IMG/VR virus record: IMGVR_UViG_2541047726_000007 | From: a virus | Taxonomy: Duplodnaviria; Heunggongvirae; Uroviricota; Caudoviricetes | Direction: 5' to 3' (one strand) | Length of the DNA: 23,312 nt | Shown here: one piece after another, positions 1,774-22,731 of the stretch | Layout: every line of letters starts with the position of its first letter | Numbering within the stretch: the first letter of the stretch is position 1 | The notes under the pieces: generated by a model | Told to the model about the DNA's origin: nothing | Seen by the model: only the letters and a program-made list of their open reading frames with translations | Databases searched by the model: none | Made by a program: the position numbers and the translations under genes

Positions 1774-2058
1774 TTATTCAGTGCCGATATTTACCTTTAT
1801 CGCGTATACCTTTACCGGTTTATCACCGAAGTGCGGATGTGTGATTGTCTTCACTTCATATCCGTCATACGGAACATCAACTCTGCGGCTGGAATCGTCG
1901 CGCTTCGGATATCCCTTTGTGATAATCAGGCGGTCATGCTTACGGTTAACGAGGCGCTTTTTCCAGTAGTCATTACACAGGCGATACTCTTCCGTTTTCT
2001 CTCCGCGAATCATGGCATCGAAGTATTCACCTTTAACGGCAAGTTGCAGGTTAGCCAC
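1774..2058 (-). CDS. ASCH/PUA-like domain protein (94 aa), GTG start
   Basis: N-terminal KGEYFDAMIRGEKTEEYR resembles the ASCH signature; GTG at 2056-2058 lies 2 nt after the upstream TAA and is preceded by GGAG. Confidence 0.5.
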   Translation of the reverse strand: MANLQLAVKGEYFDAMIRGEKTEEYRLCNDYWKKRLVNRKHDRLIITKGYPKRDDSSRRVDVPYDGYEVKTITHPHFGDKPVKVYAIKVNIGTE

Positions 2059-2791
2059 GGTTAACTCCTTGCTGTGTGGCGTCGAGTAATAAATCCCACA
2101 ACCGCTGAGAGCAATTTCCGCATGTACAGCGTTGACCCACAACGTTTATCGCGTTGCTGATTTCCGGCGTTACCTGTTTAGGAACCATAACCCAACCATC
2201 CGGAGTTACCGGAAGCGAGAACGGCAGCACATCTCTGTGAACAAGTTTTTGCTGTGACAGGTTATCCAGAACTTTCTGTACTGCTGCATCACCGAATACA
2301 CCAAGCGCATCTGCCATAACTCCTACAACCTGATAAGCCTCAGCGCATACCGTGGATAAACCATCCGGAATTACCGGAGAGTTGCCGGGTTCTTTAATGT
2401 GCAAGCGAGGCTCACCATCTTTTGGCTCAGGCCACTGGCGCTCCATGTTGATCTTCAATTTATCTTCCATAGCAACGGTAATTTCAGCATCGCTGATGCC
2501 AGCACGGCGCTGTGCATCCCACAACAGAAACTGCATATCAGCCCACTCGCTAAGATCGTCTGGTTCGGCTGCGGCTTCCAGTGCCTCTTTTGAGAGGTGT
2601 TTCAGTGGACCAATGGGGCCAACGCAGCCAAATGTGGAGTCAGACCATTTGGCATGCTCGTGGCGAATCTGTTCGCGTTCCAGTGATGCCAGTGCAATTC
2701 GTGCTAGTTCCATTTGTTCGCCACGAGTAAGCCCGTTTTCAAGCGGATTTTTAATGAACAATTCAATACGTTCTTTGGTAATAGTGGTCAT
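2051..2791 (-). CDS. Hypothetical ea-region protein (246 aa)
   Basis: Long ORF; its N-terminal module (ARIALASLE) is shared with the gene at 3550-3804. Confidence 0.6.
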   Translation of the reverse strand: MTTITKERIELFIKNPLENGLTRGEQMELARIALASLEREQIRHEHAKWSDSTFGCVGPIGPLKHLSKEALEAAAEPDDLSEWADMQFLLWDAQRRAGISDAEITVAMEDKLKINMERQWPEPKDGEPRLHIKEPGNSPVIPDGLSTVCAEAYQVVGVMADALGVFGDAAVQKVLDNLSQQKLVHRDVLPFSLPVTPDGWVMVPKQVTPEISNAINVVGQRCTCGNCSQRLWDLLLDATQQGVNRG

Positions 2792-3804: not shown

Positions 3805-4227
3805 ATCAATCTCCATTGGTATCAATGTTTACAGCCTGACAAGACTCTTTGAGCACCCAGTCAATAGCGTCTTTCCATGCCTCTGTTTCGACTGGTGGAT
3901 TTTCACGCTTAACCTGTTCATAGAAGCGCACTGCTTTAACCAGTCCTTCCGGTACTACTGGTGATGGCTGTTTAGCTTCTAAATCAGCAATTCTGTCAAC
4001 CACGGCATCGACAGCATCTGAAAAGCCGAACCAGTTGCTCCACTCCGGCTCATCCCCGGTTGCTGCAAAGTACATATCTGCTAAAGCAGATTCAGCATGG
4101 TCACGCTCGTTAATGAGTTGCTCTTCGCTTTTCTCCAGTTCAGCAATACGCTTACTGAAGTGGTTTACTGAATTTGGCCACCTGAACAGAGGTGATATGC
4201 TCACCTCAGAACAACACAGGTGCCATA

Positions 4228-5375
<1,148 letters not shown>

Positions 5376-5819
5376 CTCGGTGGCCAGTTTTTGTTGACCA
5401 CTTCATACCCCCATCCGAGATAACACCTTCGTAATACTCACGCTGCTCGTTGAGTTTTGATTTTGTCTCCTCAAGCTCAACTCTCAGCTTCCCAACAGTA
5501 AGAGCAATATCCTCGTTCTCCTGGTCGCGGCGTTTTATGTATTGCTGGTTTCTTTCCCGTTCATCCAGCAGTGCCAGCACAGTAGCCGGATTGGCTGCGG
5601 CGATGAATTCAGCATTGGCCTGCTGTTCCATTTGGAAATCTTCATCGAAACCGCTTTCTGGATGCGCTCCTTCAATTCTGCAAATGGGAATATATCCAGC
5701 AACTTCACGATGAATTAGCGCATAATCACCATCAAATCGGCTCTCTCCATATTCGAGCGACCACTCACCACACGTTGCTTTTTCTGCCGCTTCACGCAGT
5801 GCCTGATAGTTAATTTCGC

Positions 5820-9514: not shown

Positions 9515-9715
9515 TCAGGCAGCTTTGTTGTTCTGTTTACCAAGTTCTCTGGCAATCATTGCCGTCGTTCGTATTGCCCATTTATCGACATATTTCCCAT
9601 CTTCCATTACAGGAAACATTTCTTCAGGCTTAACCATGCATTCCGATTGCAGCTTGCATCCATTGCATCGTTTGAATTGTCCACACCATTGATTTGTATC
9701 AATAGTCGTAGTCAT
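9515..9715 (-). CDS. ral: Ral (restriction alleviation), 66 aa
   Basis: MTTTIDTNQWCGQFKRCNGCKLQSECMVKPEE... is lambda Ral-like. Confidence 0.8.
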   Translation of the reverse strand: MTTTIDTNQWCGQFKRCNGCKLQSECMVKPEEMFPVMEDGKYVDKWAIRTTAMIARELGKQNNKAA

Positions 9716-10526: not shown

Positions 10527-10799
10527 TCATCTCGCCGTCAGTTGTTTTGATTTCCGGTAGCCTGCCGCGTAAAGAGCTACGTTCGGAAGACAAGTTGAAC
10601 CTTCATATTTTCTGGTCAACGTTGTCAGAGTTATCACTTCTGCTCTCATTGCTGGTTTGAGCTTGCATTGCAAGACCACTCGTGAAGGGGTTGGCCTGTG
10701 TAGCTTGTCGGAGCTGATCGCCTCCTGACTTTGCAGATTTGCGCGACGAGCTCTACGGCGAGAAGCTGCGGTGCCTTTAAATTCTGTTTTTCTGGACAT
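10527..10799 (-). CDS. N: N-like transcription antiterminator (90 aa) with an arginine-rich motif, not lambda N
   Basis: N-terminal GTAASRRRARRA motif; first gene downstream of pL/nutL; GGAGG site before the ATG at 10797-10799. Confidence 0.7.
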   Translation of the reverse strand: MSRKTEFKGTAASRRRARRANLQSQEAISSDKLHRPTPSRVVLQCKLKPAMRAEVITLTTLTRKYEGSTCLPNVALYAAGYRKSKQLTAR

Positions 10800-10824
10800 G
10801 GATTCCTCCCGAATAAACTTTGGC

Positions 10825-10871
10825 GATGCAATCTCGAAGCTCCTCCTGAGACGGTTGCTTCGGCATTGCAT
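10825..10871 (-). promoter_or_regulatory. Long imperfect hairpin in the N leader (candidate RNase III site / translational control element)
   Basis: 15-nt arms GATGCAATCTCGAAG and CTTCGGCATTGCATC (2 mismatches) separated by 17 nt, 26 nt upstream of the N start. Confidence 0.4.
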
Positions 10872-11235: not shown

Positions 11236-11988
11236 TTATGCTGCAAGTCTCTTAACCCAAGTCTCTCTTTTGGAGAATGGTAGAACTTGGCTTGATTCAT
11301 GGAAGAGTAAGGAGAGTTGTTGCATTTGATCACCAATTGCTTCGCTGTCTATAACAACAAATCTGTTGTTATACTCCTCACTTGAAGCTTTAAGATCAAT
11401 TAGTTTCCCAAGCAATGAGTAAGCACTATTCCAGCTTCCTCCGTGTTTCACGCTTGATGTAAAAACGTATTTAGGTATGTCGGTTTTTATTGTTACAGGG
11501 ACGGTAATTTGATGTCCACTCAAGCCATATACGTTTTCACGAAGAGAAAGTGCGTCTCTAAGCTCTGTGTGATATAGATAATCAATAACCATACTTTCAA
11601 ACTTTTCAGCTTGAACTGGCTGATACCAGTCTAACGACAAAGTTGATGCGAGTATACCAGCTCTAATTATGTTCGATGTAATCGCACCGACATCCTTTTC
11701 TGTTGCCCAAGCAATGATTTCTCCTCGAGCATTGAGTTCTGCGCCTTCTTTAAGCAGTAATTGTCGTATCTCATCAAGTCGTTTTTTGGTAAGCGAGATC
11801 CCTCTTGCCTCCATATTCATTAAGGCATCGCATCTGTCACTAACTAAATACCTACCATTGACTTCACGGATAAAGGCACCGACATGCTCTCCATCATCAC
11901 AGTAAGTGAATGGACTGATAATTCTCAAGGTCTTGCCTATTGGATGGCATTCGAAACCTAGTTGTGAGATCACTGTTGAGCACATCAT
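11236..11988 (-). CDS. Hypothetical protein, rex-position cassette gene B (250 aa)
   Basis: Long ORF whose ATG overlaps the gene A stop (ATGA); AT-rich; no transmembrane segments evident. Confidence 0.7.
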   Translation of the reverse strand: MMCSTVISQLGFECHPIGKTLRIISPFTYCDDGEHVGAFIREVNGRYLVSDRCDALMNMEARGISLTKKRLDEIRQLLLKEGAELNARGEIIAWATEKDVGAITSNIIRAGILASTLSLDWYQPVQAEKFESMVIDYLYHTELRDALSLRENVYGLSGHQITVPVTIKTDIPKYVFTSSVKHGGSWNSAYSLLGKLIDLKASSEEYNNRFVVIDSEAIGDQMQQLSLLFHESSQVLPFSKRETWVKRLAA

Positions 11989-12542
11989 ATTCCAAACCCC
12001 ATTTGCCCCGACTCATCTTCAAGCGGTAAAGGTATTCTCCCAGAGTAAGTTATGTTCAGATGTTTACAGAAGTAATTCCAATACCCTACCAGGTCATCTG
12101 GGTTTATGTCATCTTCGATTGGAAACGCTATTCTATCACTATAGTATCCAGCTTCTTCATAGTATACATGGTAGTGAGCACCGTAAATGATATCTTGGTA
12201 CTTCGGATGATCGACCTTGTAACTATTCGTGTGTTTGTCAAAGTGATAGGTATCTACCGCGAAAACCCTCTTGTTATGATAGAAAGCAATAATATTTATT
12301 TTAGGGTAAGAAATCGGGTCATCAGGTTCTGAATCCTGATCTGGTTTCCATTTCAGTTCAAACTTTAGCCCTTGTATAGGTATACAATCCTCATCCAAGG
12401 GGATGATATGGGCTTGTAGCCACATATCAGAGCGACTTGGTTTCTGTTTCCATTTAACGCCAGAAAAGTTAACTATTTTTTTACAATAAAGTACTTTATC
12501 AACTTCTACTTGGCTTGGCTGATAATCATCTATTTTTGCCAA
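11985..12542 (-). CDS. Hypothetical protein, rex-position cassette gene A (185 aa; TTG start, uncertain)
   Basis: ORF 39 nt downstream of cI; AT-rich; Tyr/His/Asp-rich, no recognisable motif. Confidence 0.6.
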   Translation of the reverse strand: MAKIDDYQPSQVEVDKVLYCKKIVNFSGVKWKQKPSRSDMWLQAHIIPLDEDCIPIQGLKFELKWKPDQDSEPDDPISYPKINIIAFYHNKRVFAVDTYHFDKHTNSYKVDHPKYQDIIYGAHYHVYYEEAGYYSDRIAFPIEDDINPDDLVGYWNYFCKHLNITYSGRIPLPLEDESGQMGFGI

Positions 12543-12581: not shown

Positions 12582-13235
12582 TCACCCAAACGTCTCTTCA
12601 GGCCATTGGCTGGCGATAACTTTCCCCACAACGGAACAACTCTCATTGCATGGGATCATTGGGTATTGTGGGTTTAGTGGCTGTAGAAACACCTGACCGC
12701 TATCCCTGATCAGTTTCTTGAAGGTAAATTCATCACCACCAAGTCTGGCTATGCAGAAATCGCCGGGCTCAACAGCTTGCTCAGGGTCAACCAGAATTAA
12801 CATCCCGTCAGGAAAGCTGGGTTTGGAACCTGTTGGTGCGGTCATTGAGTTACCTTCAACCTCAAGCCAGAATGCAGAGTCACTGGCTTTTTTGGTTGTG
12901 CTTACCAATCTCTCCGCATCGCCTTTGGTAAAGGTTCTGAGTTCTGGAGAGAACATCCCAGCCTGAACATGAGAAAAAACAGGGTACTCATATTGTTTTT
13001 TAACTGGGGCCGATGAGTATTCGCCAACAGGTGAAAATGTCCCGTCGTGGTTGAATGATATGTTATCAATACCAAGGTATTTAAACACCACACCAATATC
13101 ACTAAGAGATGGATGACGAGATCCGCGCAACCAGTGTCCAATCCCACCCTGCGTCATACCTAGCTCTTCGGCTAACTTCTCTTGAGTTATGCCGAGCTCT
13201 TTCATTCTGGATCTAGCCAGTTCATACCATTTCAT
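12582..13235 (-). CDS. cI: CI repressor, chimeric: lambda-type C-terminal domain with a non-lambda HTH N-terminal domain
   Basis: C-terminal about 130 aa match remembered lambda cI ([13 protein letters not shown]...[10 protein letters not shown]); the N-terminus differs; start taken as ATG 13233-13235 (an ATG two codons upstream is also possible). Confidence 0.85.
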
Positions 13236-13352
13236 TTTCATGTCCTTATTATTACGCTCTGTACTGGAACCATCCATGCACAATGTGTATTTTTACTTGT
13301 ATTCGCAAAGTACATATTGTATTTTTTTATTCGTGTTTACTATGGAGGGCAT
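13236..13352. promoter_or_regulatory. Divergent pRM/pR operator-promoter region (oR candidate)
   Basis: AT-rich 117-bp spacer between divergent cI and cro with several imperfect palindromes containing GTAC/TGTA half-sites. Confidence 0.5.
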
Positions 13353-15948: not shown

Positions 15949-15976
15949 AGGCCTGCAGGTAATCGCAGGCCTTTTT
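15949..15976 (+). terminator. Intrinsic terminator between ren and ninB (tR2-like)
   Basis: 8-bp stem AGGCCTGC/GCAGGCCT with an 8-nt loop, followed by TTTTTATTT. Confidence 0.7.
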
Positions 15977-15996
15977 ATTTGGGGGAGAGGGAAGTC

Positions 15997-16437
15997 ATGA
16001 AAAAACTAACCTTTGAAATTCGATCTCCGGCACATCAGCAAAACGCTATTCACGCAGTACAGCAAATCCTTCCAGACCCAACCAAACCAATCGTAGTAAC
16101 CATTCAGGAACGCAACCGCAGCTTAGACCAAAACAGGAAGCTATGGGCCTGCTTAGGTGACGTCTCTCGTCAGGTTGAATGGCATGGTCGCTGGCTGGAT
16201 GCAGAAAGCTGGAAGTGTGTGTTTACCGCAGCATTAAAGCAGCAGGATGTTGTTCCTAACCTTGCCGGGAATGGCTTTGTGGTAATAGGCCAGTCAACCA
16301 GCAGGATGCGTGTAAGCGAATTTGCGGAGCTATTAGAGCTTATACAGGCATTCGGTACAGAGCGTGGCGTTAAGTGGTCAGACGAAGCGCGACTGGCTCT
16401 CGAATGGAAAGCGCGATGGGGAGATCGGGCTGCATGA
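15997..16437 (+). CDS. ninB: NinB (Orf recombination mediator), 146 aa
   Basis: MKKLTFEIRSPAHQQNAIHAVQQILPDPTKPIVVTIQERNRSLDQNRKLWA... is lambda NinB-like. Confidence 0.85.
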   Translation: MKKLTFEIRSPAHQQNAIHAVQQILPDPTKPIVVTIQERNRSLDQNRKLWACLGDVSRQVEWHGRWLDAESWKCVFTAALKQQDVVPNLAGNGFVVIGQSTSRMRVSEFAELLELIQAFGTERGVKWSDEARLALEWKARWGDRAA

Positions 16438-16961
16438 CTATCAAATCAAATACGCCAGCACACGACAAGGACTGCTGGCAAACGCCGCTTTGGCTTTTTG
16501 ATGCACTGGATATTGAGTTTGGATTCTGGCTGGATTCGGCAGCGAGCGACAAAAATGCTCTGTGCGCTCACTGGCTAACTGAGGACGACGACGCGCTCAA
16601 TTCTGAGTGGGTAAGCCACGGTGCAATCTGGAATAACCCACCGTACAGCAATATCAGGCCGTGGGTGGAAAAAGCCGCTGAGCAGTGTATACAACAGCGA
16701 CAGACGGTAGTGATGCTTGTGCCAGAGGATATGTCTGTCGGATGGTTCAGCAAGGCTCTGGAGAGTGTTGACGAAGTTCGTATTATCACTGATGGACGGA
16801 TTAATTTTATCGAACCATCGACAGGGCTGGAGAAGAAGGGAAACAGCAAAGGCTCCATGCTGCTGATTTGGCGACCGTTCATCAGTCCTCGACGGATGTT
16901 TACTACCGTATCCAAAGCGGCATTGATGGCGATCGGGCAGGGCGTCAGGAGGGCTGCATGA
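16434..16961 (+). CDS. Orphan DNA N6-adenine methyltransferase (phage Dam-like), 175 aa
   Basis: NPPY catalytic motif ([10 protein letters not shown]); ATGA overlaps with ninB and ninE. Confidence 0.75.
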
Positions 16962-17134
16962 GACGACAGCGACGAAGCATCACCGACATAATCTGCGAAA
17001 ACTGCAAATACCTTCCAACGAAACGCTCCAGAAATAAACGCAAGCTAATCCCAAAAGAATCTGACGTAAAAACCTTCAATTACACAGCCCACCTGTGGGA
17101 TATCCGGTGGCTAAGATATCGTGCGAGGAAATGA
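16958..17134 (+). CDS. ninE: NinE, 58 aa
   Basis: [23 protein letters not shown]...[13 protein letters not shown] is lambda/DLP12 NinE-like. Confidence 0.75.
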
Positions 17135-18841: not shown

Positions 18842-19924
18842 TTAGAACTGATAAACCAGACCTACAGCGACGATGTCGTCGGTATCAATACCAGCTGTTT
18901 TGGTAAACTTACTATCGTCAATTAAGTTGATTTTGTAATCAACAAAAGTGGACATGTTTTTATTAAAGTAGTAAGTAGCACCGACATCGACATACTTGAC
19001 TAAGTCTCGGTCACCATGAACACCAAGGTCTTTACCTTTTGACTGAAGGTAAGCAACAGATGGACGCAGACCGAAGTCAAACTGATATTGTGCTACTGCT
19101 TCAAAGTTTTGTGCTTTGTTTGCAATATGGTTATTACCAAAAACGGTCATATTCTGAGTTTCAGAATATGTGGTAGCCAGATAGATATTGTTCGCATCAT
19201 ATTTCAGGCCTGCAGCCCATACTTCCGCATTTTTGCCGGAGGCATTGAATTTGCTCTTACCATAGGCGACCTGACCGTCAGTGCGATCTGATTTAGCATA
19301 GGTTGCACCCACGCCGAATCCTTCATACTCATAAGTAGTGGAGAAACCGAAACCATCACCATTGGCTTCAGTTACGTCAGTGCGGTCATTTTTACCCTGA
19401 TACTGAGCAGCAAAGTTCAGGCCATCGACCAGACCAAAGAAGTCGTTGTTACGATAAGTTGCAACACCAGTAGTGCGACCAGTCATGAACACATCTGTTT
19501 GGGTCCAGGTATCACCACCGAATTCTGGCAGAACGTCAGTCCACGCACCGATGTCGTATGCTACACCGTAGTTACGGCCGTAATCGATTGAGCCGTAATC
19601 ACCAAATTTCAGGCCTGCAAATGCAAGACGGGTTTTGTCTTTGGAAGAACCTTGAGATTCAGCACGGTTGCCTTTGAATTCATATTCCCACTGACCGAAA
19701 CCAGTCAGTTGATCGTTGATTTGGGTTTCACCTTTGAAGCCAAGACGGGCATAAGTAGTATCACCATCATCTGCATCATTAGAGGAGAAGTAGTGCTTGG
19801 CATTAACTTTCCCGTATAGATCCAGCTTGTTACTGTCTTTATTATAAATTTCAGCTGCCTGAGCAGACATCGCCATCAGTACTGATGCAGCTACAGCAGA
19901 AATTGCCACTGTTAATTTTTTCAT
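18842..19924 (-). CDS. nmpC: Outer-membrane porin, OmpC/OmpF family (NmpC / Lc-type lysogenic-conversion porin), intact
   Basis: Signal peptide [23 protein letters not shown] followed by porin beta-barrel features and a C-terminal ...VGLVYQF. Confidence 0.9.
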
Positions 19925-20350
19925 TGTACGCCCTTTTTTTGAACTTTTATTAAAAAATGATGTCACTGCGCGATAAATATTCATCTAATCAATGTGATTA
20001 TTTCAAGATGTAAGTTTTAGTTTCTCATTTAATTTGTGAAGTAGATCTCTATTTTTATCTGAACCTTTTCTATCTAATCCTATTCATGGCTCTTGTCTGA
20101 ACAAAAATAAATCTATTAGCTAATTTATATTAATGGCACTTATTTATAAGTGCTCTATAATTCTTTAGCTTAATTTAAACAAACTAAAAATAACATCGGA
20201 AATTATTAACTGGTTATTTGTTGAAGTTTTCTTATGCATTTGTGGTGGTGTTTTGAACACTCGGTGGCATTCTCACAAATATCATTTAGTAGTTTACGTA
20301 CGTAAAAAATTGGTTATGCTGTTAAGAGTGGTTACTTCGTCACACAGCTT

Positions 20351-21683: not shown

Positions 21684-21706
21684 AGCTGCCCGGTAATGAC
21701 TCCAAC

Positions 21707-22210
21707 TTATTGATAGTGTTTTATGTTCAGATAATGCCCGATGACTTTGTCATGCAGCTCCACCGATTTTGAGAACGACAGCGACTTCCGTCCCAGCCGT
21801 GCCAGGTGCTGCCTCAGATTCAGGTTATGCCGCTCAATTCGCTGCGTATATCGCTTGCTGATTACGTGCAGCTTTCCCTTCAGGCGGGATTCATACAGCG
21901 GCCAGCCATCCGTCATCCATATCACCACGTCAAAGGGTGACAGCAGGCTCATAAGACGCCCCAGCGTCGCCATAGTGCGTTCACCGAATACGTGCGCAAC
22001 AACCGTCTTCCGGAGCCTGTCATACGCGTAAAACAGCCAGCGCTGGCGCGATTTAGCCCCGACGTATCCCCACTGTTCGTCCATTTCCGCGCAGACGATG
22101 ACGTCACTGCCCGGCTGTATGCGCGAGGTTACCGACTGCGGCCTGAGTTTTTTAAATGGCGGAAAATCGTGTTGAGGCCAACGCCCATAATGCGGGCGGT
22201 TGCCCGGCAT
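21707..22210 (-). CDS. insB: IS1 InsB reading frame (expressed as InsAB' by frameshift)
   Basis: 167-aa ORF overlapping insA, IS1 InsB-like. Confidence 0.85.
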
Positions 22211-22404
22211 CCAACGCCATTCATGGCCATATCAATGATTTTCTGGTGCGTACCGGGTTGAGAAGCGGTGTAAGTGAACTGCAGTTGCCATGTTTTACGG
22301 CAGTGAGAGCAGAGATAGCGCTGATGTCCGGCGGTGCTTTTGCCGTTACGCACCACCCCGTCAGTAGCTGAACAGGAGGGACAGCTGATAGAAACAGAAG
22401 CCAC
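22129..22404 (-). CDS. insA: IS1 InsA
   Basis: 91-aa product with zinc-finger and HTH features, matching remembered InsA. Confidence 0.85.
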
Positions 22405-22459
22405 TGGAGCACCTCAAAAACACCATCATACACTAAATCAGTAAGTTGGCAGCATCACC

Positions 22460-22731
22460 CAGGCTTGTATGTTAATAGCGCAGCGACAGATGTATTTGCA
22501 GAGAAAACCACATTTGGATGTATTGCAAAAGCTGATGGTCACTTTCATGTGGTGACAAATGGTAAAGCGGTTAATGAAGTTTATTGTGAATATAATGGTG
22601 TGACCGCTGATAAAAATATCCGATTTGGAGGGCAGACGAATACTGGAGAACGACATCTGTTTGGCCATATTCGCAATTTCCGCATATGGCATAAAGAATT
22701 AAATGACAGGCAATTAAAAGAGGTCGTATGA
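22460..22731 (+). pseudogene. 3' fragment of a gene truncated by IS1; C-terminus resembles a LamG/concanavalin-like domain
   Basis: The frame is open from the IS1 boundary; ends ...LFGHIRNFRIWHKELNDRQLKEVV. Confidence 0.4.

Follow-up and report, generated by a model that had tools for sequence, protein, structure and literature searches.

A probable phage Dam-type orphan adenine methyltransferase, orthologous to VT2-Sakai orf32, in the nin region of a lambdoid prophage

The closest described enzyme to the one considered here is M.EcoVT2Dam, a phage adenine methyltransferase reported to target 5'-GATC-3' in two papers (PMC6602927; PMC7556043) that cite Radlinska & Bujnicki 2001; according to these citing papers, the gene was cloned and the GATC site assigned in 2001, including a test by expression in a dam-minus host. 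In this work we analysed a gene of the same type in IMG/VR virus record IMGVR_UViG_2541047726_000007, a stretch of 23,312 nucleotides (hereafter, the window) that holds a lambdoid prophage of Escherichia coli with the gene in its nin region, between ninB and ninE. The family concerned (PF05869/TIGR01712; the HP1 Dam and T1 Dam type) consists of proteins that, like the window protein, have about 170-180 residues in a single domain, carry an (N/D)PPY motif, and are phage-borne orphans. T1 Dam is in the same family, and T1 DNA is GATC-methylated in dam- hosts. The VT-2 and HP1 members of the family are listed as phage Dam-like genes in PMC7556043. The Dam enzymes of E. coli and phage T4 are of another kind, namely alpha-class proteins (PF02086) that are about 100 residues longer than the window protein and have a separate target-recognition domain.

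The window protein and the product of VT2-Sakai orf32 (NP_050531) are identical at 174 of 175 residues, the sole substitution being D51 in the window protein for A51 in the Stx2 phage. The two proteins have the same length, and orf32 also lies between ninB and ninE with ATGA overlaps, whereas the elements that carry the two genes differ: VT2-Sakai is a Stx2 phage, and the window, which contains no Stx genes, holds a lambda-like element at icd. Since no other product of VT2-Sakai is annotated as a DNA methyltransferase, we take orf32 to be M.EcoVT2Dam. Because of this near-identity to an enzyme reported to be GATC-specific, the target of the window enzyme is very probably GATC as well, the same site as that of host Dam, a specificity that comes from the literature and is extended here through the sequence. 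Phage Phi24B has a dam product with 100% identity to NP_050531 and 99% to the HK97 protein, and Min27 has the same gene. The gene has identical coordinates (16434..16961) in the VT2-Sakai record, a coincidence, as the upstream genes and their coordinates differ.

The profile searches point the same way. The protein matches Pfam PF05869, 'DNA N-6-adenine-methyltransferase (Dam)', with an E-value of 3.7e-65 (219.1 bits against a cut-off of 28.1; profile positions 1-167 of 169), and the NCBIfam equivalog TIGR01712, 'phage N-6-adenine-methyltransferase', with 1.2e-79 (265.6 bits against 97.05; positions 1-165 of 165), scores so far above the cut-offs that a chance open reading frame (ORF) is excluded. 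It also matches phrog_111 (PHROG 111, 'DNA methyltransferase'; 8.3e-88) and the PADLOC 'orphan methyltransferase' models, and the Prokaryotic Genome Annotation Pipeline (PGAP) of NCBI names the gene 'phage N-6-adenine-methyltransferase' in E. coli ATCC 25922. The full-length profile matches, the motifs, the small single domain and the phage location without an endonuclease place it in PF05869/TIGR01712, and we have strong confidence in its biochemical identification as a phage Dam-type methyltransferase, as far as sequence can tell. The Pfam scan gave no PF02086 match in the window protein, which therefore does not group with the alpha-class Dam enzymes (E. coli Dam, T4 Dam, DpnM); if the two share a specificity, it would have arisen by convergence, as they have no detectable sequence homology. 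Family members in phages of Klebsiella, Vibrio and Lactococcus, and in many other Escherichia phages, have only about 30-43% identity to the window protein (tblastn), and their specificity may differ. A paper on Phytophthora DAMT also names PF05869 but deals mostly with another domain family, and was set aside as evidence. A preliminary description of this DNA had called the gene an orphan N6-adenine methyltransferase of the nin region, which agrees with the profiles, and had not recognised that the type of enzyme was already named and cloned.

The catalytic motif IV, NPPY, which had been picked out before, occupies residues 68-71, and a set of 53 homologues, 59-86% identical to the window protein, shows no variation at N68, P69, P70 or Y71. 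Another 41 positions are invariant in the same set, T17, P18 and D34 among them, and all are present in the window protein. Towards the N-terminus, WQTP (residues 15-18) is followed by a motif X-like helix and by a first strand, FWLDSAAS (residues 31-38), that resembles motif I, a segment that presumably forms the binding region for S-adenosylmethionine (AdoMet). A sequence search of the Protein Data Bank (PDB) gave chance-level matches only (E-values of 0.31 and 0.69), and since no solved relative is detectable there by sequence, we used a predicted model, built with AlphaFold2 from the 53 homologues (predicted local distance difference test score of 85.2, predicted template modelling score of 0.83). 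The model has one Rossmann-type alpha/beta domain and no additional domain, with a helix at 19-29 after T17-P18, a strand at 31-36 with D34, and a strand at 64-68 that leads into NPPY; the remainder consists of three more helix-strand units, a hairpin and a C-terminal helix. In the model, the order of TP-helix, motif I-like strand and NPPY appears as the gamma-class arrangement minus the target-recognition domain. The predicted fold is closest to the gamma-class adenine methyltransferases (M.TaqI) and to PCIF1, the closest structural match, with sequence identities of 11-16% to structural matches of this type. In contrast to the window protein, which is a catalytic domain only, M.TaqI, other gamma-class enzymes and PCIF1/CAPAM have large extra target-recognition domains (382-751 residues or more). 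The hairpin region at 116-141, with the invariant residues R116, G121, F125, K139 and G140, is a candidate for the part that reads GATC.

Neither the PGAP annotation of ATCC 25922 nor the Pfam and PADLOC scans gave a restriction endonuclease of a restriction-modification (R-M) system in the 23-kb window, in line with the earlier statement that none lies nearby. The flanking genes are ninB, ninE, ninX and rusA, with no adjacent endonuclease, and the gene is thus not part of a type II R-M system.

The ORF predicted earlier at 16434-16961 stands, with 175 codons plus stop, an ATG at 16434-16436 and a TGA at 16959-16961. An upstream GTG at 16374, which would give a 195-residue ORF, was rejected as the start in favour of the ATG, because the homologues that consist of PF05869 alone mostly have 172-185 residues, and because the profile matches start at residues 2-4 when the ATG is taken as the first codon, which is also the choice of PGAP. 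Both ends of the gene overlap its neighbours by ATGA (Table 1), which agrees with the tight packing and ATGA junctions described for lambdoid nin regions (PMC8022706). The translational coupling to ninB and ninE that had been claimed is thus visible as overlaps at either end, and the coupling itself is what such overlaps would suggest. After ninE follow ninX, rusA and the antiterminator gene Q, according to the Pfam scan.

A strong hairpin that resembles an intrinsic terminator lies between ren and ninB, where lambda has tR2; its stem has eight pairs, six of them G-C (AGGCCTGC...GCAGGCCT), and is followed by TTTTATTT. The N gene is at 10527..10871 on the minus strand, and O, P, N, cI and Q are all intact in the window. 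Being downstream of O, P, ren and the terminator, the methyltransferase gene is probably a delayed-early gene of the pR operon that depends on N antitermination. In the search for a private or internal promoter we found seven promoter-like sites where shuffled sequence gives 8.1, which gives no indication that the gene is expressed independently of pR. In Phi24B, dam is reported to change significantly in expression on prophage induction (PMC3342100).

Table 1. Positions of the methyltransferase gene, its motifs, junctions and neighbours in the window.
Feature	Position	Strand	Remarks
tR2-like intrinsic terminator between ren and ninB	15949..15980	+	stem 15949-15972, then T-run
ninB (orf), upstream, same operon	15997..16437	+	NinB PF05772, 1.1e-54
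11-bp junction GGGCTGCATGA, left copy	16427..16437	+	flanks cassette
Predicted phage Dam-type N6-adenine DNA methyltransferase gene	16434..16961	+	175 residues plus stop; VT2-Sakai orf32 orthologue
ATGA overlap, methyltransferase start and ninB stop	16434..16437	+	from sequence; ninB TGA is 16435-16437
N-terminal WQTP (residues 15-18), then motif X-like helix; first strand FWLDSAAS, motif I-like (residues 31-38)	16476..16547	+	
Catalytic motif IV NPPY (residues 68-71)	16635..16646	+	read from sequence
11-bp junction GGGCTGCATGA, right copy	16951..16961	+	flanks cassette
ATGA overlap, ninE start and methyltransferase stop	16958..16961	+	from sequence; ninE ATG is 16958-16960
ninE, downstream	16958..17134	+	NinE PF05322, 1.8e-41

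The comparison with lambda and VT2-Sakai shows that the gene is a mosaic cassette. Identity to lambda is 98.1% up to the last base of ninB and resumes at 94.6% from the third codon of ninE, and in the interval the 528-bp methyltransferase gene stands in place of lambda ninC and ninD. Relative to VT2-Sakai, a stretch with 97.7% identity opens 7 nt ahead of the methyltransferase start and closes with the end of ninE, whereas the ninB allele before the cassette is of lambda type in the window and a different one in VT2-Sakai. The 11-mer GGGCTGCATGA that flanks the cassette on both sides occurs exactly twice in the window, against an expectation of 0.01; the same 11-mer is found at the lambda ninB/ninC junction, near 1575-1585 of the lambda record L003, where it ends lambda ninB, and GAAGCTGCATGA is present at the lambda ninC/ninD junction. 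The homology with both phages breaks within a few bases of the GGGCTGCATGA junctions, a pattern that suggests cassette exchange at conserved gene-boundary sequences. Lambdoid modules are thought to be exchanged at short conserved sequences of this kind.

Concerning distribution, the 1.8-kb stretch from ninB to ninX has a counterpart with 100% DNA identity in each of the phages ev207, ev017 and PhiR57_1, and partial matches to it occur in 449 phage records. The gene is found at an identity of at least 95% in 1566 of 5426 complete E. coli genomes (about 29%), including those of Nissle 1917 and ATCC 11775, and its annotation in the matching genomes is always 'phage N-6-adenine-methyltransferase'. 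Homologues detected by tblastn are present in 1906 of 50,697 phage records, some of them annotated as Dam-like. The methyltransferase gene is therefore one that is already known and widely distributed in lambda-like E. coli phages.

There are 62 GATC sites in the window, with an observed/expected ratio of 0.62, and other palindromes are also rarer than expected (CTAG 0.32, TATA 0.66, GGCC 0.72). GATC depletion was consequently rejected as a sign of function. Of these sites, one at 16423 lies in the Shine-Dalgarno region of the methyltransferase gene and another, at 16931, 27 nt ahead of the start of ninE, each of them within GATCGGGC. As the target would be the site of host Dam, the absence of a new methylation motif in a dam+ lysogen is expected and uninformative, and Dam and its phage homologues are described as not distinguishable in single-molecule real-time (SMRT) sequencing data (PMC6602927). 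In methylome studies of a dam+ host, the activity of this enzyme would therefore be indistinguishable from that of host Dam.

Taken together, we consider it highly probable that the gene encodes a small, single-domain, AdoMet-dependent phage Dam, the orthologue of M.EcoVT2Dam, that acts as a GATC-methylating orphan, with a possible role in topping up GATC methylation. The timing and the benefit that we infer are as follows. Under cI repression the gene would be silent, and the enzyme would be produced following infection or induction, when N has begun to antiterminate and the phage DNA replicates. It would then top up GATC methylation on fast-replicating phage DNA left under-methylated by limited host Dam; the virion DNA of lambda and P22 is reported to be under-methylated by host Dam, possibly as replication outruns the enzyme (PMC8022706). 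As a result, the packaged genomes would be fully methylated, which would shield them in the next host from methylation-sensitive enzymes that cut GATC (MboI/DpnII type), and, while the phage replicates and recombines, MutH would find no hemimethylated or unmethylated GATC to act on. The functional guess of the preliminary description, protection from restriction or gene regulation, is plausible.

Several points weigh against this reading. The GATC result comes from expression of a cloned gene, and Dam-like enzymes that are over-produced can methylate off-target (PMC10810198); moreover, the step from the cloned VT-2 gene to orf32 is made only through annotation. E. coli is already Dam+, so that a further GATC methylase looks redundant, and PMC7556043 describes the function of phage Dam enzymes as 'still not well understood', their benefit to the phage not being established. 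A 'Dam-like' enzyme of Stx phages that belongs to another family turned out to act mainly as a 16S rRNA methyltransferase (PMC10810198, 2023). Finally, the Phi24B Dam protein has been detected in lysogen cultures (PMC3342100), which could mean some expression in the lysogen or spontaneous induction in part of the culture. We hold any single biological role to be at best tentative, somewhat short of an even chance.

One alternative is a regulatory benefit, in which extra GATC methylation would supplement host Dam in the control of phage promoters or in the stability of lysogeny. Host Dam is reportedly needed for the lysogeny of the Stx phage 933W to be stable (Murphy et al. 2008, cited in PMC3342100), a supplementary role has been proposed for Phi24B Dam in the study that detected the protein in lysogen cultures (PMC3342100), and the GATC at 16423 falls in the gene's own Shine-Dalgarno region. 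Against this, the pR operon is repressed and the gene follows a terminator within it, promoter signals do not exceed chance, and the signal from lysogen cultures may stem from spontaneously induced cells. In addition, chromosomal GATC is reported to be 99.9% methylated in both strains of Shiga toxin-producing E. coli (STEC) compared in PMC6602927, which share host Dam and differ in the number of phage Dam homologues, so that little is left for an extra Dam to change. We regard the regulatory benefit as unlikely.

It is less likely still that the main role in vivo is one other than shielding from restriction at GATC, either evasion of MutH, together with NinB/Orf and RusA, or methylation of RNA. 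In the former case, fully methylated phage DNA would be invisible to MutH in recombination between diverged phages; in the latter, the enzyme would also methylate RNA, as its closest structural match, PCIF1, does.

A stronger form of the second possibility, that the main substrate is RNA (an adenine of rRNA or mRNA) and that GATC methylation is a side activity of over-expression, as for M.EcoPA8orf6770P, seems to us very improbable. The mis-annotated phage 'Dam' just mentioned (PMC10810198) gives it a precedent, and the AlphaFold2 model, with its match to the PCIF1 fold and no recognisable DNA target-recognition domain, fits it too. That precedent, M.EcoGV/M.EcoPA8orf6770P, is prophage-borne and annotated as a GATC Dam homologue in STEC genomes, like the window gene (PMC6602927; PMC10810198); unlike the window gene, it is METTL3/14-like and MT-A70-like, needs a partner, PNB-2, and acts on RNA (PMC10810198). 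The window protein gave no Pfam match to the MT-A70 domain, and in the Foldseek list METTL3-METTL14 comes no higher than rank 50, with an E-value of 0.18. Being of a different family, the window gene was rejected as an M.EcoGV-type 16S rRNA methyltransferase. No partner-like subunit was seen among the annotated neighbours, NinB and NinE being adjacent, and PNB-2 was not searched for; the VT-2 and HP1 relatives, as noted above, are counted among the phage Dam-like genes. The M.EcoGV-type gene presumably sits at the other end of the phage early region. As for VT2-Sakai, its orf4 was considered as a possible M.EcoGV-type homologue and rejected, since the Pfam scan identifies it as a DUF551 protein.

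That the gene is a non-functional relic in a decaying prophage, as an IS3-family insertion at 4156..5405 and an IS1 directly after the Rz gene might suggest, is the most improbable of these readings, given an ORF of full length against both curated profiles with all invariant family residues present, a DNA sequence 100% identical to that of the gene in sequenced phages, and intact O, P, N, cI and Q genes in the window.

The prophage adjoins icd and, insertion sequence positions aside, is 100% identical over positions 1-21691 to a prophage of E. coli ATCC 25922. Its genes comprise int, xis, exo, bet, gam, kil, cIII, ral, sieB, N, a two-gene cassette, cI and cro, and further cII, O, P, ren, ninB, the methyltransferase gene, ninE, ninX, rusA, ylcG, Q, a porin gene and the lysis genes. 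The 66-residue ORF at 9515-9715 (minus strand) is named 'antirestriction Ral family protein' by PGAP in ATCC 25922, and the prophage thus has a second function connected with R-M besides the Dam-type methyltransferase. The two-gene cassette (11236-12542, minus strand), which takes the place that rexAB has in lambda and lies between cI (12582-13283) and N, encodes a DUF1828 protein of 250 residues and a protein of 185 residues with a weak DUF6978 match; it matches the PADLOC candidate defence system PDC-M24 (component B, 4.7e-10; component A, 4.8e-4) and may be an anti-phage system encoded by the prophage. In the early-left region, the gene at 2051-2791 (minus strand) specifies a protein that has a dATP/dGTP pyrophosphohydrolase domain (PF04447, 8.2e-42) and no PADLOC match.

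Between Q and the lysis genes lies a complete gene for an OmpC-type porin (18842-19984, minus strand; Porin_1, 2.2e-151), named 'porin OmpC' by PGAP in ATCC 25922, which looks like a lysogenic-conversion gene. The IS3-family element mentioned above is ISEc52-like and belongs to the early-left region; in the ATCC 25922 prophage this position is empty and two copies are present elsewhere, and the element has recently been active in this prophage lineage. The IS1 transposase (2.3e-78; ORF at 21707-22210, minus strand) belongs to an element at about 21692-22460, and the identity with ATCC 25922 ends at 21691; the prophage may have an interrupted or deleted late region.

Seen as a discovery, the gene carries little weight, for the NCBI pipeline already gives it a name, and hundreds of sequenced phages carry it, as do about 29% of the complete E. 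coli genomes.
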